From contig DASWHO010000423.1 of assembly GCA_036398155.1 (NCBI GenBank), forward strand, positions 3,003-67,002: a stretch of 64,000 bases of DNA, read 5' to 3'. How positions within the stretch are numbered: position 1 is the first letter of the stretch; every line of letters starts with the position of its first letter. Below are positions 6,014 through 63,164 of this stretch, in pieces. Both the position numbers and the translations under genes were made by a program. The notes below the pieces were generated by a model that saw nothing but the letters and a program-made list of their open reading frames with translations, made no database searches and was not told the origin of the DNA. Source of the stretch: Acidobacteriota bacterium (lineage in GTDB: Bacteria > Acidobacteriota > DASWHO01).

Positions 6014-7489
6014 GTGACCGAGCCCGCGCCCAAGCCCGCCGCCGATTGGTCGAGAGAGAACGATCCACCGAGCCGCCGGATCCGCCTGCTGGCGCTGGCC
6101 GCCGCACTCGGGATCGGCCTGCTCGCCTACCTGATGCGCGATCTGCTCGGCGCCCGCGGCATCGGGCCGCTCGGGGTCCTGGTGCTTTTGGGGATTTCGG
6201 TCGCGCTCTCGGGCGCGCCGCGCCGCATCGACCTGCGCACCGTCGGCTGGGGCATCGCCCTGCAGCTCATCCTCGCGCTGCTGATCCTGCGCTTCGAGAT
6301 CGGCGGGGTGCGCCCCGGCTACGCCCTGTTCAGCGCGATCGGCGCGATGGTGCGCCAGTTCCTGGCGTTCACCGACGAGGGCTCCAAGTTCGTGTTCGGG
6401 GTGCTGGCCGACCCGGTCGCGATGGATCAGGAGTTCGGCGCCGGCGCCGGGTTCGTGTTCGCCTTCCGCGCCCTGCCGACGATCATCTTCGTCAGCTCGT
6501 TCTTCACCATCCTCTACTACTTCGGCGTGCTGCAGTGGATCGTCAAGCTGATGGCGCGCGCCATGATGGTGGTGATGCGGACCAGCGGCGCCGAGTCGCT
6601 GTCGGCCGCCGCCAACGTGTTCATGGGCCAGACCGAGGCGCCGCTGATCGTCAAGCCCTACGTCGAGCCGATGACCCGCTCGGAGCTGCTGTCGCTGATG
6701 GTCGGCGGGATGGCGACCATCTCGGGCGGGGTGATGGCGGTGTACATCTCGCTGGGGGCCGATCCGGTGGCGCTCTTGACCGCCAGCGTGATGGCGGCGC
6801 CGTGCGCGCTGTATCTGACCAAGATCGTGATGCCCGAGCTCGATCAACCGGTGACCCGCGGCGTGATCCGAATGGAGGTGCCGCGCACCGACGTCAACGT
6901 GATCGACGCCGCCTCGCGCGGCGCCTCCGAAGGCACGTTCCTGGCGATCAACGTCGGAGCGATGCTGATCGCCTTTCTGGCCTTGATCGCCATGGTCAAT
7001 TTCATGCTCGGCTACATCCATATCGGCAGCGCCGCGCCCGACGCGGCCCCGGGCTGGGTCAGCTGGGGCTCGTTCCACGCCGGAGCATTTCACGATCAGC
7101 CGGGCCATGAAGCGTGCGCGGTGCTGTCGCTCAGCCGGCTGTTCTCGGTGGTGTTCGCGCCGCTCGCCTTTCTGATGGGGGTGCCGAGCGCCGACATCGG
7201 CCGGGTCGCGGACCTGCTCGGCACCAAGCTGGTGGCCAACGAGTTCGTCGCCTACGTCAAGCTCACCGGTCCCTATGCGCCGCTCTTGTCCGAGCGCGCC
7301 ACCGAGATCGCCACCATCGCGCTGTGCGGTTTCGCCAACTTCGCTTCGATCGGGATCCAGCTCGGCGGCATCGGCTCGATCGCGCCGAGCCGCCGCGGCG
7401 ACCTGTCGCGCCTCGGCGTCCGCGCGCTCTACTGCGGCTTCGTCGCCACCATGATCAACGCTGCGATCGCCGCCACCCTCTTGCCTTAG
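6014..7489 (+). CDS. nupC: Concentrative nucleoside transporter, NupC/CNT family
   Basis: Multi-TM protein with the CNT hallmark 'ANVFMGQTEAPL' and conserved C-terminal half (GFANFASIGIQLGG). Confidence 0.8.
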   Translation: MTEPAPKPAADWSRENDPPSRRIRLLALAAALGIGLLAYLMRDLLGARGIGPLGVLVLLGISVALSGAPRRIDLRTVGWGIALQLILALLILRFEIGGVRPGYALFSAIGAMVRQFLAFTDEGSKFVFGVLADPVAMDQEFGAGAGFVFAFRALPTIIFVSSFFTILYYFGVLQWIVKLMARAMMVVMRTSGAESLSAAANVFMGQTEAPLIVKPYVEPMTRSELLSLMVGGMATISGGVMAVYISLGADPVALLTASVMAAPCALYLTKIVMPELDQPVTRGVIRMEVPRTDVNVIDAASRGASEGTFLAINVGAMLIAFLALIAMVNFMLGYIHIGSAAPDAAPGWVSWGSFHAGAFHDQPGHEACAVLSLSRLFSVVFAPLAFLMGVPSADIGRVADLLGTKLVANEFVAYVKLTGPYAPLLSERATEIATIALCGFANFASIGIQLGGIGSIAPSRRGDLSRLGVRALYCGFVATMINAAIAATLLP

Positions 7490-7572
7490 GCGGCGGATAG
7501 GGCGCCGTCTGCGTCGTTGGGCTCACTCGGCCTTCTCCAGCGTACCTTTCTCAGTGCGACTCCACCGTTCCC
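7490..7572 (+). repeat. Stop-codon-adjacent double-hairpin repeat (head GCGGCGGATAGGGCGCCG + CTCCAGCGTACCTTTCTCAGTGCG), copy 1, sense to nupC
   Basis: Begins at the first nt after the nupC TAG. Near-identical sequence recurs after the STK, rplQ, lon, rpoC and ferredoxin-like genes (see findings). Confidence 0.7.
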
Positions 7573-7694
7573 GGCGCGGCTGAACCGAGGCGCGCGTCGG
7601 GCTCCTTACCCCATACAACGCGCGCCGTCCCCGAATGCGAGTCAGCCGCATCGCCGGCCCGAGCCGCTGCGGTGGCGGGCAAGGTGGATCGGCG

Positions 7695-10553: not shown

Positions 10554-12302
10554 TTACCTGTCAATAGCCGGCGCCTTCTCCCCCTCGTGGACGGTGACGG
10601 TGCGGCCGGGCTCCAAGTCCGTCAATCGGTCGACTTGACCCGACGGCCAGCGCACCTCGAGCCGCTCCACCGTTTTGGCGCCGCCGAGCCCGAACAGCAG
10701 CCGCGGGTCGCTCTGCGACAGGTAGGAGTTGGCGCTGCGGGCCTCGCGCACCTGGGTCCGACCGCCGGCGACCAGCGTGACCCGAGCGCCGAACCCGTCG
10801 CGATTGCTGCGCCGGCCTCGCAGCACCACCCGCAGCCAGCCGCCGCGGTTGCCGCCGTCATTGCGCAGCAGCGCCGCGCGGTCGTTATTGCGGCTGATCA
10901 GCAGCTCGCGGTCGCCGTCGTCGTCCAGGTCGCCGAGCGCCAGGCCGCGGCTGACCCGCACGTCATTGATCGCGCCGCAGGCCCCGGTGACCTCGACGAA
11001 CTTGGCGCCGCCCAGGTTGCGGAACACCATGCCGCGCTGGGCGTAGGTGATGTTGTCTTTGAACAGATGGATGTTGTCGATGATGTGGCCGTTGACCACG
11101 ATGATGTCCTGCCAGCCGTCGCCGTCGTAATCGTCGAAAGCGGTGCCGAACCCGACGAACAGCAGACTCGGCTCGCCCAGGCCGGCCCGGTAGGTGGTGT
11201 CGGTGAAGCTATGGGCGCCGTCGTTGTGGTACAGCGTGTTGGTCTCCAGATCCAGATTGGTGACGAACAGCTCGGGCTTCTGATCGCCGTCGATGTCCGC
11301 GCTGTCGACCCCCATCCCGGCCATGGCCTTGCCGTCCTCACTGTAGCCGGCGCCCGAAAACAGCGACTCGTCGGCGAAAGTGCCGTCGCCGTTGTTGACG
11401 AACAGGTAGTTGATGGTCGAATCGTTGGCGCCGTAGAGGTCGGGATCGCCGTCGCCGTCGACGTCGGTCCAGACCACTCCGAGCCCTTTGCCCTCGGTGA
11501 TATAGAGCCCGGCCGCCCGGGTCGCGTCGCTGAAGCTGCCGTCGCCGTTGTTGCGATACAGGACCGGCGGGACCCCGTTGTAGACATCCGGATGACAGTA
11601 GGCGCGCTGCTGCAAGCGCAGGTTGCCGCAGAACTTGTTGTTGTCGAGCGTGAAGTCGACGTAGTTGGAGACGTAGAGATCGAGATCGCCGTCCAGATCG
11701 TAATCGGCGAACGCGGCCGAAGCGCCCCACAGCTTGGAATCGACCCCAGCCGCCTGGCTCACGTCGGTGAAGCGGCCGCCGCCGTCGTTGCGGTAGAGGA
11801 TGTTGGGTCCCAGCGCGGTGATGTAGATGTCGGAGTCGCCGTCGTTGTCGTAGTCGCCGAAGCTGACCCCCATCATCCAGCCGCGGCCGGCGACCCCGGC
11901 GCTGTCGGTGACGTCCTCAAAGCGGAGGGCGCCGAGGTTGCGGTAGAGCCGATTGGTCGGCGCCGGCCCTTGGTAGCCGGGCAGCGCGCTGCCGTTTACC
12001 AAGTACAGATCCATGCGCCCGTCGCCGTCGTAGTCGAAGATCCCGGCGCCCGAGCCCATGGTCTCGACCATGTACTTCTGCCCCGAACCGCCGTGGCGAT
12101 GGACGAAATCGACGCCGGCCTGGTCGGTGATGTCCACATAGGTGACCGCGGGCGTGCCCGGCGGCGCCGGCGGCGCAGGCTCGGGCCGGGCCGGAGCTCG
12201 CTCCTGCGACAGCGCAGTGATGGTCGCGATCATGACGACACCGGCGATCCAGCCGGCGCGCCAATGTAGGGGCGGGGCTGGTCCCCGCCCGAACGTTTTC
12301 AT
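10554..12302 (-). CDS. Secreted FG-GAP-repeat / ASPIC-UnbV (CRTAC1-like) protein
   Basis: Signal peptide ([30 protein letters not shown]). Repeated DxDGDG FG-GAP calcium-binding motifs. C-terminal ASPIC/UnbV-like segment (RVTLVAGGRTQVREARSANSYLSQSDPRLLFGLG). ATG overlaps the stop of the upstream ABC ATPase (ATGA). The 888-aa track ORF is a frame artefact. Confidence 0.65.
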   Translation of the reverse strand: MKTFGRGPAPPLHWRAGWIAGVVMIATITALSQERAPARPEPAPPAPPGTPAVTYVDITDQAGVDFVHRHGGSGQKYMVETMGSGAGIFDYDGDGRMDLYLVNGSALPGYQGPAPTNRLYRNLGALRFEDVTDSAGVAGRGWMMGVSFGDYDNDGDSDIYITALGPNILYRNDGGGRFTDVSQAAGVDSKLWGASAAFADYDLDGDLDLYVSNYVDFTLDNNKFCGNLRLQQRAYCHPDVYNGVPPVLYRNNGDGSFSDATRAAGLYITEGKGLGVVWTDVDGDGDPDLYGANDSTINYLFVNNGDGTFADESLFSGAGYSEDGKAMAGMGVDSADIDGDQKPELFVTNLDLETNTLYHNDGAHSFTDTTYRAGLGEPSLLFVGFGTAFDDYDGDGWQDIIVVNGHIIDNIHLFKDNITYAQRGMVFRNLGGAKFVEVTGACGAINDVRVSRGLALGDLDDDGDRELLISRNNDRAALLRNDGGNRGGWLRVVLRGRRSNRDGFGARVTLVAGGRTQVREARSANSYLSQSDPRLLFGLGGAKTVERLEVRWPSGQVDRLTDLEPGRTVTVHEGEKAPAIDR

Positions 12303-16844: not shown

Positions 16845-19292
16845 ATGGAACCTTCACAGCCCAACCGAATCGACGAGAGCAAGTTCACTCCGCTGGTACC
16901 GCTGCGCGATGTGATCGTCTTCCCCTACATGATGATGCCGTTCGTGGTCGGGCGGCGCAAATCGATTCTGGCGCTCGAGCACGCGCTGCTGCACGGCAAG
17001 CGCATCCTGCTGGCGACCCAGAAGGACGCCGCCACCGACGATCCCGGGGTCGAAGAGATCTTCCGCACCGGCACGATCGCCAACATCGTCCAGAGCCTCA
17101 AGCTGCCCAACGGCAACATCAAGGTGCTGGTCGAGGGCATCGAGCGCGCCCAGATCCTCGAGTTCCGCGACAACGAGGAGTTCCACGAGGCGCTGGTGCG
17201 CACCGCCAAGCGCAAGGTCGAGGTCACCGCCACGGTCGAGAAGGCGATGCAGGGGCTGCTGAGCCTGTTCGAGCAGTACATCAAGCTGAGCCAGAGCTTC
17301 TCGTACGAGGCGATGATCTCGGCGGTCCGGATCGACGATCCCGACCGGCTGACCGACACCATCTCGGCCCACCTGATGGTCGATCTGGAAGAGAAGCAGG
17401 CGCTGTTGGAGATGTTCGATCCGGTCGAGCGGCTCAACCGGATCGCCGAGATCCTCGAGATCGAAATCGAAAAGCTCCAGGTCGACAAGCGCATCCAGGG
17501 CCGGGTCAAGAAGCAGATGGAGAAGGCCCAGCGCGAGTACTACCTCAACGAGAAGCTCAAAGCGATCCAGAAGGAGCTGGGCAAGAAGGACAACCGCAAC
17601 AGCGACCTGGAGGAGCTGCGCAAGAAGATCGAAACCAAGAAGATGCCCAAGGAAGCGCGCGAGAAGGCCCAGCAGGAGCTCGAGCGGCTCGAAGCGATGC
17701 CGGCGATGAGCGCCGAATCGACCGTATCGCGCAACTACCTCGACTGGCTGCTCGGGATTCCGTGGGAGGAGCGCTCGCGCGAGAACCGCTCGCTCAAGCG
17801 CGCCGAGAAGGTGCTGCAGCAGGATCATTTCGGGCTGGAAAAAGTTAAAGAACGGATCCTCGAGTTCCTGGCGGTGCGCCAGCTGGTCAAGAAGCAGAAG
17901 GGCTCGATCCTCTGCTTCGTCGGGCCGCCGGGCGTCGGCAAGAGCTCGCTGGCCAAGTCGATCGCGCGCTCGACCGGCCGCAGATTCGTGCGGCTTTCGC
18001 TCGGCGGGGTGCGCGACGAGGCCGAGATCCGCGGTCACCGGCGCACCTACATCGGCGCCTATCCGGGCCAGATCGTCCAGTTGATGAAGAAGGCCACCAC
18101 CGTCAATCCGGTCTTTCTGCTGGATGAAGTCGACAAGATGAGCATGGATTTCCGCGGCGATCCGTCGGCCGCGCTGCTCGAGGTGCTCGACCCGGAGCAG
18201 AACAACTCCTTCGTCGACCACTATCTCGATACCGAATACGACCTCTCGCACGTCATGTTCATCGCCACCGCCAACGTGCTCCACACCATCCCGCGGGCGC
18301 TGCAAGACCGGATGGAGGTGATTCGGCTTTCGGGCTACACCCTCAAGGAGAAGATCGAAATCGCCAAACGCCATCTGATCGCCAAGCAGCTCCAGGCCCA
18401 CGGCCTGCACAAGCGCGGCATCCGTTTCACCGAAGAGGCGCTGCAGCGGGTGATCGAGAACTACACCCGCGAGGCCGGGGTGCGCAATTTGGAGCGCGAG
18501 ATCGCCAACATCTGCCGCAAGCTGGCGCGCCAGATCGTCACCAAACGCTCGACCCGTTACCCGCGGGTGGTGACCGGAGCCGCGGTCGAGCGTCATCTCG
18601 GGGTGCCGCGCTTCCGCAGCGGCCAGAAAGAGAAGATCGCCGGCGCCGGCCTCGCCACCGGGCTGGCCTGGACCGAGATGGGCGGCGAGCTGCTCAACAT
18701 CGAAGCGACCCTGATGCCCGGCAAGGGCCGGCTCAACATCACCGGCAAGCTCGGCGAGGTGATGCAGGAATCGGCCCACGCCGCGCTCTCGTACGTGCGC
18801 AGCAACGCGGCCCAGTTCGGCATCCCGCGCGACTTCCACCGCAGCTCCGACATCCACATCCACGTGCCCGAGGGCGCGATCCCCAAAGACGGCCCCAGCG
18901 CCGGGATCGCGATCGCCACCGCGCTGGTTTCGGCGCTGGCCGGCGTGCCGGTGCGCGACGACGTCGCGATGACCGGCGAGATCACCTTGCGCGGCCGGGT
19001 GCTGCCGATCGGCGGGGTCAAGGAAAAGCTGCTGGCGGCCCACCGGGCCGAGATCCTGCGGGTGCTGCTGCCGCGGGAGAACGAAAAGGACCTCTCCGAG
19101 ATTCCCGAAGAGGTGCGCCGAGAGCTCAAGATCGAGCTGGTCGAGAACATGAAGCAGGTGCTCGACGCCGTGCTGGTCAGCAAGCTCACGCCTCTGATCG
19201 AACCGATCAGCGCCTACCAGCCGGGCAGCAAGCACGACGTGCCTCCCTCCGAGGAGCACGACGCGGCCGACTCCCCCCACAACATCATCTAG
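16845..19292 (+). CDS. lon: ATP-dependent protease Lon
   Basis: Lon N-domain, AAA+ '[15 protein letters not shown]', protease '[17 protein letters not shown]' catalytic Ser motif. Confidence 0.9.
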
Positions 19293-19440
19293 GCGGCGGA
19301 GCTGCCGCTGGTCTCCATCCAGCGGCCTTCCGCTGCCCTAAGCGCCGTGCTCCGGCGCACGGGCAGACCTCGTCGTCATTCCGGCGCAAGCCGGAATCCA
19401 GCGGTCATTCCGACGCCGGGCGGAATCCAGCCCCGGAATT
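19293..19440 (+). repeat. Composite post-stop repeat: head hairpin GCGGCGGAGCTGCCGC + CAGCGGCCTTCCGCTG, then two tandem GTCATTCCG(N6-8)CGGAATCCAG hairpins
   Basis: Starts 1 nt after the lon TAG. The tandem hairpins are 19375-19401 and 19404-19430. A degenerate copy lies at 22004-22028. Confidence 0.65.
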
Positions 19441-19463: not shown

Positions 19464-21782
19464 ATGCTGGGGGCTCCCGAGCCGGTGAAAAAGATCGGCA
19501 AATACGAGGTTCAGCGCGAGCTCGGTCGCGGCGCCATGGCGGTGGTCTATGAGGCGATCGACACCGCGATCGAGCGCACCGTCGCGATCAAGGTCATCGC
19601 CGAAGGCCTGCTGCAGGGCGAGGAGGCGCGGCGCCGCTTTTACCAAGAGGCGCGCAGCGCCGGCCGGCTGTCGCATGAGAACATCCTGGTCATCTACGAC
19701 CTCGGCGAAGACGGCGGCCACCCGTTCATCGCCATGGAGCACCTGCGCGGCACCGATCTCAGGCGCCAGCTCGACCGCGACGGTCCGCCGAGCCTCCAAC
19801 GCACGCTCGATATCGCCGCCCAGATCGGGCGCGGACTCGAATACGCCCATCAGAACGGCGTCATCCATCGCGACATCAAGCCCTCCAACATCTGTCTGAC
19901 CCAGAGCGGCCGGGTCAAAATCATGGATTTCGGCATCGCCAAGCTGGTGTCGGCCGAAATGACTCGCACCGGACAGACCTTGGGCACCCCGTACTACATG
20001 GCGCCCGAACAGGTTCAAGGCGCCAAGATCGACGGCCGAGCCGACATCTTCGCCTTCGGCGTGGTGCTGTATGAGCTGCTGACCGGCGTGCGTCCGTTCG
20101 AGGGCAGCGACATGGCCAGCGTGCTCTACAAGGTCGTATTCAAGCCGCCGCCGCCGCTGCCGGAAGCACTGCCGGCCGCGCTCAAGGCCGTCGTCGAGCG
20201 CTGCCTGGCCAAGGATCCGGAGCAGCGCTACCCGGACTTTTCCGCGGTGCTGGTCGATCTCGAGCGTCTGGGCAGGGAGATCGCCGCCAACGAGGAGAGC
20301 CAGAAGACCCGCGTGGGGCTCGACCGAACCGTGGCGCGCACCCCGGCGGCCGCGCCTCCCGCCGCCACCCAGCGGCTTGCGCGCGGCGCTGAAACTCCGC
20401 CCCCGGCGGCGCCGCCATCGCTCGCCCCGGCGGCCGCCGCGCCGCTCGAGCCGGCCGCGGAGCGAGCCGAACCGATCGAGCTCGGCCCGCCGGACCGCCA
20501 GAGCCGCACCCGCACCGCCCTGCTGATCGCCGGCGCCGCCGGCATACTGGTGGTCGCGGCCGTTGCCGGTCTGCTGCTCGGTCGCGGCGAGGCTCCGCAG
20601 CGCTCGGCCGATTCGAATCCGGGTCCGACCGGCGCGGCTTCGACTCCGCCCGCGGTCGTTCCGGAGCCGGTTGAAGCCGGCCCAGCCCCCGATGGGGCCG
20701 GCGCCGCGACGGATTCACAGGCTGCGCCCGAAGCCGGGCCGACCTCACCGCCGGCGCAACCAGCCGCTGGCCCGTCGCAACCAACCACGGTCCCGACACC
20801 GAAATCGAAAAGCCCGCCGCCCAACCCACCGCGCGAGACCGCCGCGCCGTCCCCCTCCGCCATGCTGGTCCGGCAAGTCGAAGAGCAGGCGGCGGCGTTC
20901 CGGCGCGAGGTCGACCCGGAGCTGGCCGAGCGCACCGCGCCGGAGGACTTCGGCGCCGCCGCCGATCTCGAGCGGCAGCTCTTGGAACGCGCCCGCCGCG
21001 GCGATGCCGCGGTGCTCGGCGAGCTCCCCAGGCTCGGACAACGCTTCAACCGGGTTCAGGCGCGGGCGCTTTTGAGCCGGCTTCACGACCAAGTGCTGGA
21101 GGTCAAACAAGACGCCGCCAAGGCCGGTGCGCCCGGCCGCGCCAGCGCGCAATGGAGCGCCGCCGAAAGGCTGCTGCAGCAAGCCGGCGAACTGCGCTCG
21201 AACGGCAACTTGCGGGCCGCCGGGGCGGCGCTGCTCCAAGCCGAGCCGCTGTACCGCGAAGCGGCCGCGGAGGCGCGCGCCGCCGCGGCCGCGGAAGCGC
21301 ACGCCCGGATCTTGGCCAGCGCCCAAGAGGCCCTCGGCCGAGGCGATCCGGACGCGGCGCTGGCGGCGCTGAAAACGCTGCCGGAGGCGGAGCTCAAGCG
21401 GCCCAAGACCGCCGAGCTGCTGGCCCAGATCGAGCGGCTGCGGCGCGCGGCCGCGCCGACCACGGCGGCCAAAGAGACCGCTCCGCCCGCTCCGGCCTCC
21501 GAGCCCGCGCCGCGGGCGGTGGCGCCCGAGCCGGACGGCGCGATCCCGGTCAGCATCCGGCTGGCCAACGTCGTCGGCGTGCGCCGGGTGACGCTCTTTT
21601 TCGGCTCGCTCGGGACCGGCGTGCGCCCCAACCGGCGGATCATGAAGTCGGTCGGCGACGCGACCTACAGGACCGAGCTCGATCCCAAGGACATCGGCTC
21701 GGATGGGATCAGCTACGAGATCCAGGTCCAAACCGTCAACGGGTCGTACATCGCGGACCGCCGCGAAATCCGCCCCCGTTAA
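19464..21782 (+). CDS. Ser/Thr protein kinase with long Pro/Ala-rich low-complexity linker, a helical (TPR-like) region and a C-terminal domain of unknown function
   Basis: Hanks kinase subdomains (GRGAMAVVYEA..AIK; HRDIKPSN; DFGIAK; GTPYYMAPE). Single TM-like segment (ALLIAGAAGILVVAAVAGLLL) after the kinase domain. Confidence 0.75.
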   Translation: MLGAPEPVKKIGKYEVQRELGRGAMAVVYEAIDTAIERTVAIKVIAEGLLQGEEARRRFYQEARSAGRLSHENILVIYDLGEDGGHPFIAMEHLRGTDLRRQLDRDGPPSLQRTLDIAAQIGRGLEYAHQNGVIHRDIKPSNICLTQSGRVKIMDFGIAKLVSAEMTRTGQTLGTPYYMAPEQVQGAKIDGRADIFAFGVVLYELLTGVRPFEGSDMASVLYKVVFKPPPPLPEALPAALKAVVERCLAKDPEQRYPDFSAVLVDLERLGREIAANEESQKTRVGLDRTVARTPAAAPPAATQRLARGAETPPPAAPPSLAPAAAAPLEPAAERAEPIELGPPDRQSRTRTALLIAGAAGILVVAAVAGLLLGRGEAPQRSADSNPGPTGAASTPPAVVPEPVEAGPAPDGAGAATDSQAAPEAGPTSPPAQPAAGPSQPTTVPTPKSKSPPPNPPRETAAPSPSAMLVRQVEEQAAAFRREVDPELAERTAPEDFGAAADLERQLLERARRGDAAVLGELPRLGQRFNRVQARALLSRLHDQVLEVKQDAAKAGAPGRASAQWSAAERLLQQAGELRSNGNLRAAGAALLQAEPLYREAAAEARAAAAAEAHARILASAQEALGRGDPDAALAALKTLPEAELKRPKTAELLAQIERLRRAAAPTTAAKETAPPAPASEPAPRAVAPEPDGAIPVSIRLANVVGVRRVTLFFGSLGTGVRPNRRIMKSVGDATYRTELDPKDIGSDGISYEIQVQTVNGSYIADRREIRPR

Positions 21783-22310
21783 CCCGGCGGCGGATCTGCC
21801 GCCATCTGCTTCGTTGCGCTTGGTCGGGCTCCTCCAGCGTACGTTTCAGTACGCTTCCGTCGCCCTCCCAGCGCGCGCCTCGCATCTGACGGCAGCTCCA
21901 CCGCCCACCATGCCGTGCTGTGGTGCTGGCGTGGGCTTTGTGCCCGTTCGGCGACTTCGCTTCGCTCGTCTCGCCCTGGTCCGCGCGCGCAGCGCTGCAG
22001 CTCGTCATTCCGGTGCAAGCGGCATCCAAAGCCCAGGCTGACGTAGATCCGCCGGCATGCAGTTGCCAAATGACGTCGCGTGCCGTACCGCAGAAGGGCG
22101 GCGGAAGGCCGCAGGATGGAGACGAGCGAAGCGAGGTCGACCCGAACGTGCACAGCACCCGCCCCAGCACCAGTGCACGGGGCAGAGGGCGGTGGAGAGG
22201 GTGCCGGATGCGAGGCGGGCGAAAGGAGGCCGACGGAAGCGTACTGAAAGGTACGCTGGAGGAGGCCGACTGAGCCCAACGAAGCAGACGGCGCCCTATC
22301 CGCCGCCGGG
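21783..22310. repeat. 528-bp quasi-palindrome formed by two convergent copies of the post-stop repeat (sense to STK at left, sense to rplQ at right) around a degenerate GTCATTCCGGTGCAAGCGGCATCCA hairpin
   Basis: Left arm 21786-21972 and the reverse complement of right arm 22119-22308 align over ~185 bp. Heads CCCGGCGGCGGATCTGCCGCC / CCCGGCGGCGGATAGGGCGCC each start within 4 nt of a stop codon. Confidence 0.7.
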
Positions 22311-22910
22311 CTACTTGGCGTTGTCGTCTTTGGGCGGTTGTTGCTTGCGCAACTTGTCGGTCTTGGCCGATTTGGCCTTGGCCTTGTCGCGGCCCAAGCC
22401 GCCTTTGAGCTTGTCGACCAGTTTGCGGGTCCGGCCCTTGGCTGGCCCGGCCGCGGCGCCGGATTCGGCCGCGCCCGCCGCCGCGCCCTTCTCCCCGGCC
22501 GCAGGGGCGCTCTTCTTCTTGCCCTCGGCCTTCTTCTCGGTCCGCAGCGGCTTGGTGGAATCGACCAGCTCGATCAGCGCCATTTCGGCGCCGTCGCCGA
22601 TCCGCTGCCCGAGCTTGGTGATCCGGGTGTAGCCGCCGGGCCGCTCGGCGTAGCGCCCGGAGAGCGTATCGAACAGATTGTGCAGCACCGCGCGATCGCG
22701 CACGATCGCCGCCGCCTGGCGGCGCGCGTGCAAGCCCTCCCGCTTCGACAGCGTGATCACCTTCTCAGCGAAACGGCGCAGCTCCTTGGCCCGCGGCAGG
22801 GTGGTCACCACCCGCTCTTCGCGCAGCAGCGAAGTGGTCATGTTGCGCAGCATCGCCTGGCGGTGCTTGGTCACCACCCCGAGCTTGCGCTGTCGAATTC
22901 GATGTCGCAT
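22311..22910 (-). CDS. rplQ: 50S ribosomal protein L17 with ~70-aa Lys/Ala-rich C-terminal extension
   Basis: '[47 protein letters not shown]' L17 core. The tail is rich in K/A/G. Confidence 0.85.
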
Positions 22911-32566: not shown

Positions 32567-32592
32567 GGCCGTCTACGCCTCGCGCCGCCGGT

Positions 32593-32750
32593 GGCCAGTA
32601 ACACCCAAATCGGTAGCGGATCGCGCCGTCATCGAGGGCGGAGGCAAGGCGCGCCGACGCAGCCATAGCAAGCCGCTATGGCGAGGAGGCGCAACGCCGC
32701 ATCCGCCCTTGAGGGCCAGCGAGCCGCAACCGATTTGGGTGTTACGGGCC
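32593..32750. repeat. 158-bp imperfect palindrome (long-hairpin element) filling the abnormal 185-bp rplP-rpmC spacer
   Basis: Outer arms GGCCAGTAACACCCAAATCGGT (32593-32614) and ACCGATTTGGGTGTTACGGGCC (32729-32750) are 21/22 complementary. Central hairpin GCCATAGC-AAGCC-GCTATGGC is at 32662-32682. Inner arms are partly complementary. Confidence 0.75.
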
Positions 32751-32751
32751 A

Positions 32752-33171
32752 CTAGGCGGCCACCTCGCCGCGGGCCACGAACCGGGTCTGGAGCGGCAGT
32801 TTGTGGGCCGCGCGGCGCAGCGCCTCTTTCGCGGTGGCGCGATCGACCCCTTCCATCTCGAACAGCACCTTGCCGGGTCGAACCACCGCCACCCAATACT
32901 CGGGCGCGCCCTTGCCCTTGCCCATTCGGGTTTCGGCCGGCTTTTTGGTGCACGGCTTATCGGGAAACAGCCGCACCCAGATCTTCCCGCCGCGCTTGAT
33001 GAAGCGGCTCATCGCGATCCGGCTGGCTTCGATCTGCCGGTCGGTGATCCAGCCCGGCTCGGTGGCCTTGAGGCCGTAGTCGCCGAAGCTCACCTTGTCG
33101 CCGCGCCAGGCCTTGCCGCGGCGCCGGCCGCGCTGCACCTTGCGGTGCTTCACTTTGCTGGGCATCAACAT
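32752..33171 (-). CDS. rplP: 50S ribosomal protein L16
   Basis: '[60 protein letters not shown]'. Confidence 0.9.
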
Positions 33172-41960: not shown

Positions 41961-41981
41961 GGGAGGGGACAAGCCCCTCCC
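41961..41981 (-). terminator. GC-rich hairpin (GGGAGGGGC-TTGT-CCCCTCCC) about 45 nt downstream of rpoC; putative terminator/attenuator without U-tract
   Basis: Perfect 9-bp stem read from the sequence. It follows the post-stop head CCCGGCGGCGGATCTCCGGCGCCC (42002-42025). Confidence 0.4.
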
Positions 41982-42025
41982 CTACATCTACATGCCACTG
42001 AGGGCGCCGGAGATCCGCCGCCGGG

Positions 42026-50310
<8,285 letters not shown>

Positions 50311-60938: not shown

Positions 60939-61961
60939 GTGAGCGAAGCGCAAACACCTCCGATCAAGAAGATGAGCTTGGAGGAGAAGCTCGCCCAGCT
61001 CGCGGCCCGCAAGGAAGCCAAGAAAGCCAAGCTGGCCGCCGGCCAGCAGGCCGAAGAGGTCGAGGGCTGGCAGATCCGCTGGGCTCAGGTTCAGGGTCAG
61101 CCGGAGGATCCACTGGAGCGCAAGCGCCGCTACGGTCTGGCCTACGAGGTGATCGACCGCCCCGACGCCTTCTTCGTCAAGTTCGAGCTGCCGCGCCGGG
61201 TGCCCGACTTCGCCGACAAGTACCGCTTCGGTTTGCCGGAGTTCATGCCGGATTATAAGTACCAGGTCCAGCTCGAGGGCCGGGTCCTGGTGGTCGAAGC
61301 CAAGCTCGAGGACGAGACGATCCGCTCCTACACCACCAAAGTCAACTCGTTTCCGCCCAACTTCCGGCGCGAGATCGCCTTCGACGACAAGCTCGAGGGC
61401 TTCGAATGGCGCTACAACTACAAGGACCTCGAGATCGTGCTGTTCAAGGCCGGGCGCAAACCCGAGCTCTACAAGTGGGAAGCGCACTTCATCACCGACG
61501 ACTGCGTCGGCTGCGGGGTCTGCGACATCAAGTGCCCGACCGAGACCATCTGGGGGCTCAAGAAAGAGCGCTTCGTCATCGTCCCCGACAACTGCATCAA
61601 CTGCGGCGTGTGCGGCATCTACTGCCCCTACGACTCGATCCTGGACCACCACGGGGTGCTGGTGCCGAAGCAGAAGCCGCGCGACATCCCCAAGGCCAAG
61701 GTGGTGCTCGACCTGTGCAGCGGCTGCGAGTTCTGCATCGACATCTGCCCGTTCGACTGCATCTCGCTGGTGCCCTACCCCGACGAGACCAGCTACGACC
61801 GGGTCGCGGTGGTCGACGAGAAAGAGTGCGTCAGCTGCAAGCTCTGCGAGCAGATCTGCATCAAGGAAGCGATCGTGATCGACCGCGAGATCAAGGACCA
61901 GCCCTACGTCGGCTTCGGCTCGATGCCGGCGGAATATTTCCAGCCCCGCACCAGCCCCTAG
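60939..61961 (+). CDS. Putative Hsp20/alpha-crystallin-like N-terminal segment fused to four 4Fe-4S ferredoxin-type cluster motifs
   Basis: Four CxxCxxCxxxCP-type motifs (CVGCGVCDIKCP, CINCGVCGIYCP, CSGCEFCIDICP, CVSCKLCEQICI). The N-terminal part (YEVIDRPDAFFVKFELP..QVQLEGRVLVVEAKLEDE) resembles an ACD beta-sandwich; this is inferred only. Confidence 0.6.
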   Translation: MSEAQTPPIKKMSLEEKLAQLAARKEAKKAKLAAGQQAEEVEGWQIRWAQVQGQPEDPLERKRRYGLAYEVIDRPDAFFVKFELPRRVPDFADKYRFGLPEFMPDYKYQVQLEGRVLVVEAKLEDETIRSYTTKVNSFPPNFRREIAFDDKLEGFEWRYNYKDLEIVLFKAGRKPELYKWEAHFITDDCVGCGVCDIKCPTETIWGLKKERFVIVPDNCINCGVCGIYCPYDSILDHHGVLVPKQKPRDIPKAKVVLDLCSGCEFCIDICPFDCISLVPYPDETSYDRVAVVDEKECVSCKLCEQICIKEAIVIDREIKDQPYVGFGSMPAEYFQPRTSP

Positions 61962-61998
61962 CCGTGCCCGGCGGCGGATCTGCCGCCGGCTGCTTCAG
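61962..61998 (+). repeat. Short copy (head only) of the post-stop repeat: CCCGGCGGCGGATCTGCCGCCGG-CTGCTTC
   Basis: 7 nt after the ferredoxin-like gene's TAG. Sits between convergent genes. Confidence 0.55.
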
Positions 61999-62001
61999 GA
62001 A

Positions 62002-62508
62002 CTACCAGTCTTGGGCGGTGGGGGCGGGGCGGTCGGTCTGCTGCTCCATGCGCTGAGCCAGGCGGCGATCGAACTCGCGGTCGAAGATCAGATAGTGCGC
62101 CACCTGCGCCGGAGTGAGCAGGCGCTTGAGCTCGGCGAGCTCGTCCTTGCGCAGCTGATAGAGCTGATCCTCTTGAGCTTCCAGCTCGTCGAGCAACAGG
62201 TTGATGCGATCGTTGTTGGGCGGCTCCGACTGCAGCGCCATCCGGAGCAGCTCGGCGGTGCGGCGCCGGGCTTCGAACGTCTGCATCCGGCGGGTGAGAT
62301 ATTCGCGGTCCAGGCGCGCGACCTTGAGCAGCTCCGCGTCGCCGAGCTTGAGGCGATCGCCGAGCTCGAGCAAGCGCATGCGGCTGATGCGGGCGACGAT
62401 CGCCTCGAGCCGCTCCTCGTGAACCGGTCCCGGCCGCCGCGCCGGCTGAGCCGACGCCCAAGCGGCGCCGATCAGCACCGCGGCAGCCCAACCGCACCGA
62501 TGCCTCAT
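62002..62508 (-). CDS. Periplasmic Spy/CpxP-family (LTXXQ motif) protein
   Basis: Signal peptide (MRHRCGWAAAVLIGAAWASA). 'LTPAQVAHYLIFDREFDRRLAQ' LTXXQ motif. Coiled-coil-rich. Confidence 0.6.
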   Translation of the reverse strand: MRHRCGWAAAVLIGAAWASAQPARRPGPVHEERLEAIVARISRMRLLELGDRLKLGDAELLKVARLDREYLTRRMQTFEARRRTAELLRMALQSEPPNNDRINLLLDELEAQEDQLYQLRKDELAELKRLLTPAQVAHYLIFDREFDRRLAQRMEQQTDRPAPTAQDW

Positions 62509-63164
62509 GTGGCGCTCCCGGAACCGCGCCGCGTCGAATCGATGAGGGCCTCGAGCTCGCTCAGCGTATGCTCGAGCGCTGCGGCGTCCAACTCGAGCAA
62601 GCGCTCCTCGGCGCTGGGCGCGAAGCCGACCGCATACGCAGCCGCGTCATCCGGCAGCGCGCCGCCATAGAGATCGATCGAAGCCTGCTCGAGCTGCTCG
62701 ACCGAGAGCTCGGCGAGCGCCGATTCGAAACCCAGCTCCGCCGGCGGCAGCGGCGCGTGAACGGTCCGCGGCGGCGGATCGACGGCGCGCGGCGGATTCA
62801 GGACCATCGTCAGCGCCGCCGTGGCTGCGACGGCGGCCGGGACCGCGACCCAGAGCCAGCGGCCGGTTCTGAGCTTGCCGCGCTCGCAGCGCTCTGCGCC
62901 GCTCGACGCCAGCCGGCGGCGAACGCCGGAGCGGAAGCGCGCATCCGCGGCTTCCGAATCGCTTTCCGGCCACGGCAGCGGCAGCGCGGCGAGATCGGTC
63001 AGATCGCGCCGCAGCTCGGCCAGCTGCCGCTGCAGCTCGGGCCGGCACTTCAAGTCGCGTTCCAACGCCGCCTGCTCGGAGCCCGAAAGCGTCGCATCGA
63101 GATAGGCGACCAGGCGCGCGTCGCTGCCGCGTTCGAACCAGCGCATGATTTTCCAGCCTATCAC
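62505..63164 (-). CDS. Putative anti-sigma factor (single-pass membrane protein)
   Basis: Immediately downstream of and overlapping the ECF sigma gene. Central TM (WLWVAVPAAVAATAALTMVL). Confidence 0.55.
   Translation of the reverse strand: MIGWKIMRWFERGSDARLVAYLDATLSGSEQAALERDLKCRPELQRQLAELRRDLTDLAALPLPWPESDSEAADARFRSGVRRRLASSGAERCERGKLRTGRWLWVAVPAAVAATAALTMVLNPPRAVDPPPRTVHAPLPPAELGFESALAELSVEQLEQASIDLYGGALPDDAAAYAVGFAPSAEERLLELDAAALEHTLSELEALIDSTRRGSGSAT

Follow-up and report, generated by a model that had tools for sequence, protein, structure and literature searches.

The repeats that follow gene stops in this stretch of DNA are best read as a mobile, non-autonomous, REPIN/BIME-like family whose left arm starts with the decamer GGCGGCGGAT. 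Their placement directly behind sense-strand stop codons is probably explained (at roughly 65%) by oriented insertion of this non-autonomous element at or beside sites that contain TAG. The family adds a new example to a placement already known for bacterial REP elements. GTAG-REPs are mostly located no more than 20 bp from an ORF 3' end, and with their termini they often provide the TAG stop (PMC3733652).

Copies of the repeat in the window

The window, meaning the whole stretch of 64,000 nt that was analysed, contains six exact matches to GGCGGCGGAT where 0.75 are expected, and none of 100 shuffles reaches six. Sense-strand stops precede five of the six exact decamers and one variant at a distance of -1 to 8 nt. 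The sixth exact decamer (62770) lies within a coding region and is a chance match. The initial annotation had placed the decamer behind the stops of six genes. This stands for five exact decamers, and the copy behind lon (19292) reads GGCGGCGGAg, which is inexact yet belongs to a true member of the family. The first base of the decamer at 7489 (+) is the G of the TAG of a nupC-like gene. The decamers at 21786 (+), 22298 (-) and 42013 (-) are each preceded by a stop and then CCC, the stops being the TAA of a Ser/Thr kinase gene (21780-21785 with the CCC), the TAG of rplQ (22308-22313) and the TAG of rpoC (42023-42028). At 61970 (+), the decamer is preceded by the TAG of an Fe-S protein gene and then CCGTGCCC (61959-61969). 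A covariance model built from 53 copies of the repeat matches the window at exactly six elements, copies A to F, and nowhere else. These copies and their add-on modules are as follows.

Copy A, 7489..7567, + strand: decayed core with left arm, central-hairpin remnant and right-arm end, abutting the nupC-like TAG (7487-7489)
Copy D, 19292..19338, + strand: 47-nt mini-element, left arm joined to the family tail, after the lon TAG (19290-19292)
Copy B, 21783..21921, + strand: full long-hairpin core, starting with CCC right behind the kinase TAA (21780-21782)
Copy B add-on module 2, 21922..21972, + strand: GTGCTGG...TCGCTTCGCTCGTCTC, aligning with module 2 of copy C and with many other loci
Copy C module 2 and tail, 22097..22171, - strand: the end ...CCTTCCGCCGCCC is an inverted copy of the GGCGGCGGA head
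Copy C, 22172..22310, - strand: full long-hairpin core, starting with CCC right behind the rplQ TAG (22311-22313)
Copy E, 42003..42025, - strand: head-only hairpin, CCC GGCGGCGGATCTCCGGCGCC, abutting the rpoC TAG (42026-42028)
Copy F, 61962..61996, + strand: head-only hairpin, CCGGCGGC GGATCT GCCGCCGG, after the Fe-S gene TAG (61959-61961)

Copies B and C score 158 and 157 bits with the covariance model and fold at -71.5 kcal/mol (z -4.9) and -64.1 kcal/mol (z -5.6), respectively. Including their modules, the two (21783-21972 and 22097-22310) match at 80-81% across 172-195 nt, far more than the ~80 nt first described for the longer copies. Module 2 can be duplicated in tandem at other loci. 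Copy A is 95% identical to copy C across 62 nt, after which it carries an internal deletion. It scores 33 bits and folds no better than shuffled sequence (z +0.8). Copy D has a tail 91% identical to the end of copy C, a score of 29 bits, and TA on either flank. It forms a near-perfect hairpin of -35.9 kcal/mol (z -4.6 as RNA and z -5.7 as DNA). Copy E (19.5 bits) is a weak hairpin of -14.1 kcal/mol followed by a canonical GTAG-REP. Copy F, with 93% identity to the head of copy B and a fold of -21.4 kcal/mol, occupies the 40-nt gap between the Fe-S gene TAG and the stop of the convergent gene (62002-62004). The earlier view that the shorter copies keep only the head fits E and F, and copy D combines the head with the family tail. 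The number of copies between convergent genes was underestimated at three, as A, B, C and F all lie in such gaps. Alignment of the copies, which the initial annotation had proposed, defines classes, namely full cores, copies with internal deletions, head plus tail, and head-only copies. The module that follows copy A (7568-7690; also in L151 and L106) reads GGCTGAACCGAGGCGCGCGTCG.GCT ... GCGCGCCGTCCCCGAA..CGAG and recurs behind a truncated copy in L151.

GC-rich decamers and hairpins might simply be common in high-GC intergenic DNA, and the exact decamer inside the gene at 62770 is a chance match of this kind. As an account of the family, chance or composition is virtually excluded by the excess over shuffled sequences, by the 80-95% identity of copies across 60-195 nt, and by the position test reported below.

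Architecture and variability of the element

The basic unit measures ~125-145 nt and folds into a single long imperfect hairpin. The left arm consists of GGCGGCGGAT plus ~14 nt, continuing as AGGGCGCCGTCTGC or CTGCCGCCATCTGC. The right arm is inverted and ends in CTCCACCGCC, the two arms being inverted repeats of ~24 nt. Inside the arms lie two inner helices and the central hairpin GCGTAC-CTTTCA-GTACGC. Each arm by itself is a small palindrome, which gives the unit the architecture of a REPIN, that is, two inverted REPs, and the two REP-like arms together form one conserved long hairpin. The family also qualifies as a high-copy intergenic stem-loop of 20-40 bp, with head stems of 6-9 bp. Its palindromic units alternate in the manner of BIMEs, with a head (+), a right arm (-) and the next head (+) ~171 nt later.

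The consensus fold of 53 distinct copies comprises 34 pairs with 98.7% of cells paired, and 11 of these pairs carry changes on both sides (120 cells). None of 500 shuffles reaches these values, and pairing falls to 28-48% in slid-partner controls. Single copies fold with z of -5.6, -4.9 and -4.6 as RNA, and values obtained with DNA parameters are similar, down to -5.7. One-sided stem changes of the G-U type fill only 4 cells, against 120 two-sided ones. This near absence points to constraint on DNA hairpins rather than on RNA.

The family is modular: besides decayed single heads there are copies with internal deletions or nested inserts, add-on modules, and tandem arrays whose units recur every ~171 nt. 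Nested inserts in the central loop include canonical GTAG-REPs. Further modules are a 60-nt sequence that can be repeated in tandem, a tail corresponding to an inverted head, and a promoter-like sequence. The promoter-like module lies downstream (L069 2990-3036, L124, L139, L102, L082) and consists of AAACTTGACT, 17 nt, and GATACC or TACACA. It ends in ...TTC immediately before a TAG. A 33-nt palindrome, CAGGGGGTGTGGGGGAGTTCCCCCACTCTCCAC, is fixed between the ...GTCTGC of the head and the GTCGTTGGG of the core in many copies (L073, L090, L091, L096, L101, L111, L121, L137, L164). Within arrays, the 5-6 bases preceding the head and private head variants are common to neighbours of one locus (permutation p <0.0005 and 0.006). 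The same sharing among neighbouring units is reported for REPIN clusters (PMC3116915).

Other candidate identities were rejected. An antisense ORF runs across copy C, but indels shift its frame in copy B, which argues against a coding role. The GCCGTCTGC of the head is near the Neisseria DNA-uptake sequence, a match dismissed since the conserved unit exceeds 120 nt and is polar. Integron attC sites were discarded because the ends read TAGCCCGGCGG and CCACCGCCCAC rather than RYYYAAC/GTTRRRY, and the neighbours are housekeeping operons (rplQ, rpoC, lon).

Distribution of the family and of neighbouring repeats

The population of the source organism is uncultured and present in several ENA and JGI metagenomes, among them ERZ27256991 and ERZ27256875 as well as JGI 3300033407, 3300033417 and 3300031965. 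Its SecY has 68-69% identity to the closest named proteins, from Vicinamibacteria/Acidobacteria. JGI metagenome contigs were scanned with a pattern of 23 specified bases, which matched 86 stretches, nearly all from three samples that hold the source population. Removal of duplicates left 84 non-redundant long copies, 80-100% alike over >120 nt, and the 0.65 Mb of contigs carrying them hold additional head-only copies. The unselected 10 kb beyond the window contain one more full copy, ...tttaCTAG/GCGGCGGAT (the slash marks the junction here and below), after an aldehyde dehydrogenase gene. Many contigs (e.g. L088, L111, L138, L146, L092, L104, L133, L136, L080) break off within ~150 nt of a copy, suggesting that short-read assembly fails at the repeat.

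The 19-base pattern used to scan reference genomes was too loose, and the matches listed are mostly chance hits in unrelated phyla. The sole true homologue among the matches listed is L012, from a MAG labelled Planctomycetota, which has 75% identity and keeps the fold despite different stem sequences. In the two most distant copies (L012 1325-1351 and L087), TAGCCCGG still sits at the gene stop, and ~24 extra bases (..TTATTCACC..CTGC) separate it from GGCGGCGGAT. These extra bases indicate that the TAGCCCGG boundary is older than the present head junction. No match to the element was found in plasmid records or in Rfam. In the window only tRNAs reach Rfam gathering scores, and the segment 21700-22400 gives nothing with E up to 1.

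Other repeats share the same DNA. A third small palindromic repeat, GTCATTCCGGCGCAAGCCGGAATCCAG, occurs in the window at 19375-19430 (two tandem units) and at 22004-22028, as well as in L079, L098, L105, L106, L108, L127 and L129, often downstream of module 2 plus tail. Between rplP and rpmC lies a 162-nt element (32591-32752, - strand) whose inverted ends measure 34 nt (GTGGCCCGTAACACCCAAATCGG...) and are 91% complementary. It shares its first G with the rplP TAG stop, its far side is without TA, and it is single-copy among the window and the sampled contigs.

Empty and filled sites

Relatives with RplQ 74-80% identical to that of the window keep the gene order rplQ-kinase-lon. Their gap between rplQ and the kinase gene is only 48-57 nt long and holds one ordinary hairpin. 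Their RplQ proteins end at the identical residue (...AK, with TAG or TAA), and so does Lon, with TGA. The covariance model found no copy on the contigs carrying the relatives' rplQ, kinase and lon genes. Presence-absence variation among relatives, which the initial annotation had proposed to look for, is found as element-free orthologous junctions at rplQ, kinase and lon and as one pair of filled and empty alleles. No polymorphism is seen at the window's own rplQ and Fe-S gene sites, where contigs encoding an identical protein have the elements of the window. In L158 (4020-4640), a 620-nt gap downstream of rplQ is filled by a different repeat, whose unit GCACGGCTCGGCCGGGCCGT.CGCGGAT.GCTC..GCT.GGGACATAGAGGCCGCGCAATGGCACGG occurs twice as a direct repeat.

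The allele pair is formed by L069 and L085, which come from different samples; their flanks are 97-99% identical, and only L069 has a 202-nt insert. The empty allele reads catctccTTAGCCCGGCAGGTAATAGG and the filled allele catgtccTAGCCC[GGCGGCGGAT...GGTTTC]TAGCCCGGCAGGTAATAGG. The insert is flanked on both sides by the nine bases TAGCCCGGC as a direct repeat. The L069 element is antisense to both neighbouring genes and still on a stop codon. In the empty allele, a tight TAAGGAGATG gene junction lies on the opposite strand, and this allele looks ancestral. The resident site in the empty allele is like the head at 18 of 23 nt, so the pair could also have arisen by homing to an old head or by loss of the DNA between the repeats.

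Placement after stop codons

Among the 84 long copies, 56 lie <=20 nt after the stop of a long, GC3-rich ORF on the sense strand. The head starts at -1 relative to the stop in 9 copies, at 0 in 2, at +3 in ~27 and at +4 to +7 in ~12. A spacing to stops beyond chance expectation, as claimed from the window, is thus confirmed in ~50 of 84 further long copies at -1 to +7 nt, whereas a random non-coding position qualifies 1.2% of the time (binomial p ~3e-74). The stops next to the 56 copies are TAG in 45 cases, TAA in 6 and TGA in 5, and the codon comparison used 43, 6 and 3 (TAG 80-83%). Genes without an element on the same contigs have 135 TAG, 62 TAA and 169 TGA (TAG 37%; chi-square p 1e-9). 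Canonical GTAG-REPs (aaATGTAGGGG[C/A]GGGGC...) on the same contigs follow a sense stop in 1 of 44 cases, which makes the placement a property of the GGCGGCGGAT family and not of hairpins generally. The window holds TAG as 28 stop codons, 31 times on the sense strand within genes and 258 times in antisense. A further 157 intergenic non-stop TAGs in the window are unused by the element, hence the target must comprise more than TAG. As the commonest stop, TAG ends 28 of 49 called window genes and 178 of 418 genes of related contigs, counts from a crude caller that include some shadow ORFs. Genomes of ~66% GC usually have TGA as the dominant stop.

The GTAG-REP family occurs in the window at 41961-41986 (-) and 12266-12291 (+) as (aa)ATGTAGGGG[C/A]GGGGCTTGTCCCC[G/T]CCC. 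Two subtypes can be told apart, and the sampled contigs hold ~44 distinct copies, some of which are nested inside the central loop of a GGCGGCGGAT element.

The left junctions of the GGCGGCGGAT family fall into a few exact classes, TA/GGCGG, TAG-CCC and CTAG-TGCCC. A short tag, (T)AG followed by 0-5 nt that are usually CCC, stands ahead of every REP-like unit. The AG is common to four kinds of unit: the left head, the following head in an array and, both read as reverse complements, the right arm and the tail. Of 83 copies, 57 have the T of the tag, 48 the A and 53 the G, and the T is conserved chiefly where it completes the stop of a gene. An unpaired GTAG directly at the stem is not a feature of the family, and G precedes TAG no more often than in the background (15 of 43 vs 49 of 135). 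C does so more often (25 of 43 vs 40 of 135, p 0.001). It precedes the TA/GGCGG and CTAG-TGCCC classes, and G mostly precedes the TAG-CCC class. A pyrrolysine or readthrough signal after UAG was rejected, as the proteins end at the same residue as in element-free relatives.

The position could alternatively be set by function and selection, with the repeat serving as a 3'-end module (a terminator, an mRNA stabiliser or a brake on translation termination) that spreads by whatever means and persists only immediately behind stops. Gene-adjacent copies are indeed always in sense, with the same strand always transcribed, and copy F fills its 40-nt convergent gap as would a bidirectional terminator. 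The empty sites of relatives bear an ordinary hairpin at the same place, and E. coli REPs <=15 nt from a stop stall ribosomes according to work cited in PMC12306157. Selection for a hairpin leaves the TAG bias (83% vs 37%) and the exact 3-nt CCC spacing unexplained, however, and the equally stable GTAG-REP family of the same genome is not post-stop. Intrinsic terminators combine a hairpin with a T-run, but no T-run follows any copy, the bases after the head being TCTGCTTCGTTG, and copies A, B, C and D were not called as terminator-like sites. The decayed copy A no longer folds yet stays in place, and the L069 element is antisense to both its neighbours. We therefore regard a purely functional origin of the placement as very improbable.

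Probable insertion at TAG-containing sites

Oriented insertion would generate the observed pattern if the target sites resemble the element's own left end (TAGCCCGGC) and if insertions within genes are removed by selection. Sense TAG is nearly confined to stops in this 66% GC genome, so that, with in-gene insertions lost, surviving copies would lie 0-7 nt after stops in sense orientation. Once inserted, the hairpin would become part of the 3' untranslated region. There the stem-loop probably has a putative role in termination or mRNA stability, and it may slow the termination of translation. A targeted-insertion mechanism was among the interpretations first offered and is now supported, indirectly. 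What had gone unrecognised is that the decamer is the arm of a mobile long-hairpin repeat of the REP/REPIN kind.

As a first guess, the candidate enzyme is a single-strand transposase, HUH/RAYT-like or IS200/IS605-like. An HUH/RAYT-like mechanism is favoured by the unlike ends, by a hairpin constraint of the DNA type, by the AG tag and by the true GTAG-REPs in the same genome. One RAYT system selects nothing of the tag but its AG, and there the tag and the stem are 2 nt apart (PMC8266576). The presence of GTAG-REPs also means that the genome probably has a RAYT gene. Searches of 6654 ORFs from ~0.7 Mb returned nothing with E <1, either by phmmer with E. coli RayT or with an HMM from 118 RayT sequences. 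The HMM has little reach, because the homologue search behind it returned enterobacterial proteins only. No full-length insertion sequence with the element's ends was seen in the sampled contigs, and no transposase in the 10 kb beyond the window; a Pfam scan of 148 ORFs listed only the commonest families. Several observations count against the preferred reading. A precise transposase would hardly be expected to leave three classes of left junction. Target duplications, which HUH transposases do not make, are suggested by the direct repeat at the filled site and by the matching NTAG ends of 5 of 6 gamma-type copies. The stops of empty relatives vary (TAG, TAA, TGA), and the TAG may either have been there before the element or have come with it.

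The direct repeats at L069, copy D and the gamma-type copies speak for a DDE or site-specific mechanism instead. The family might then be a classical MITE moved by an IS630/Tc1- or IS5-type DDE transposase, with TA or CTAG/YTAR as a target that is duplicated. CTAG reads TAG on both strands, so its duplication keeps the stop of a gene ending there. All classes of left junction can be read as TA plus an element starting with G (TA/GGCGG, TA/GCCCGG and TA/GTGCCCGG), and the enrichment of C before TAG agrees with such a target. The TA on both flanks of copy D, the NTAG at both ends of gamma-type copies (with N matching in 5/6), the 9-nt direct repeat of the filled L069 allele, and arms that are inverted repeats of ~24 nt also speak for a MITE. 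The right boundaries tell otherwise, since those of other element types lack TA/TAG, with tails ending GCCC/T plus any base and cores GTGCTG/G.... Further, the ends of the 202-nt insert are not mutual inverted repeats, and the TAG-CCC class is preceded mostly by G, not C. Pairs deep in the stem covary (39-97, 50-85, 58-77), which an end-binding transposase does not require, and no partner insertion sequence was seen in the sampled contigs. On balance, a MITE of this type appears unlikely.

A more specific proposal is that the element or its enzyme homes to amber stops as such, recognising TAG(CCCGGC)-like sites and duplicating or supplying the stop, and in this way preserving gene ends. We consider this quite doubtful. 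If true, TAA and TGA stops may become TAG, which could explain TAG in about half of the genes. Near-identical hairpins would then stand 0-3 nt after UAG genome-wide and could modulate termination. Whether the element truly homes to amber stops is the sharpest point raised by the family.

Significance

The analysis adds an abundant, undescribed REP/REPIN-like family from a soil lineage that has seen little sampling. The case stands out as unusually clean, with strict orientation, exact spacing, a more than fivefold bias of TAG over TGA, and an internal control family without the effect. An old question becomes testable, namely whether REP-like repeats are found near stops through insertion there or through usefulness there. 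For annotation, such repeats mark gene ends, break metagenome assemblies, and could pass for terminators or small RNAs.

Comparison with known systems

Small elements derived from IS200/IS605 likewise have hairpins near unlike ends, insert in one orientation 3' of a short motif, and show indications of constraint on single-stranded DNA. The present family differs in the direct repeat at its filled site and its variable left junction, and no TnpA or TnpB was found. Correia elements of Neisseria, ERIC and RUP-type MITEs resemble it in their length of 100-160 nt and in inverted ends that form a long hairpin in transcripts. These MITEs share transcripts with the genes beside them, and some are known to duplicate a TA target. 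In contrast, the GGCGGCGGAT family shows no consistent TA duplication, covaries along the whole stem, and is polar to stop codons.

E. coli BIMEs share the mosaic of alternating palindromic units with a few conserved linker modules, many of them near stop codons. Their sequences are unrelated and belong to another phylum, and the present family additionally contains nested small palindromes and a promoter-like module. REPINs mobilised by RAYTs (Bertels and Rainey 2011, PMC3116915) combine two inverted REP-like arms and a spacer into one long hairpin of ~100 nt or more. They come with single REPs that look like decayed remnants and form tandem clusters that repeat flanking bases, both as seen here, and their presence-absence polymorphism has a possible counterpart in the L069/L085 pair. 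The arms of the present family, however, differ in a fixed manner (GGCGGCGGAT vs GGCGGTGGAG), and no RAYT partner was found in ~0.7 Mb. A strong tie to TAG stops, as observed here, is not described as a REPIN feature in the accessible part of that source (PMC3116915).

A close match in placement is offered by GTAG-REPs, including SMAG of Stenotrophomonas and the Pseudomonas families (Di Nocera et al. 2013, PMC3733652). Unlike in these, only TAG/AG and not the leading G is conserved in the present family, and tag and stem are set apart by a spacer that is usually CCC. The ~0.7 Mb searched yielded no RAYT gene, and the canonical GTAG-REPs coexisting in the genome behave otherwise (1/44 post-stop). 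The present family is also strictly polar in its orientation to genes, and its conserved unit is far longer (125-145 nt). Both are high-copy, short, GC-rich palindromes of intergenic regions, mostly between convergent genes or genes of the same direction and within 20 bp of ORF 3' ends. Both carry an unpaired TAG-containing tag that is often the stop codon itself, and both occur as singles, inverted dimers and clusters.
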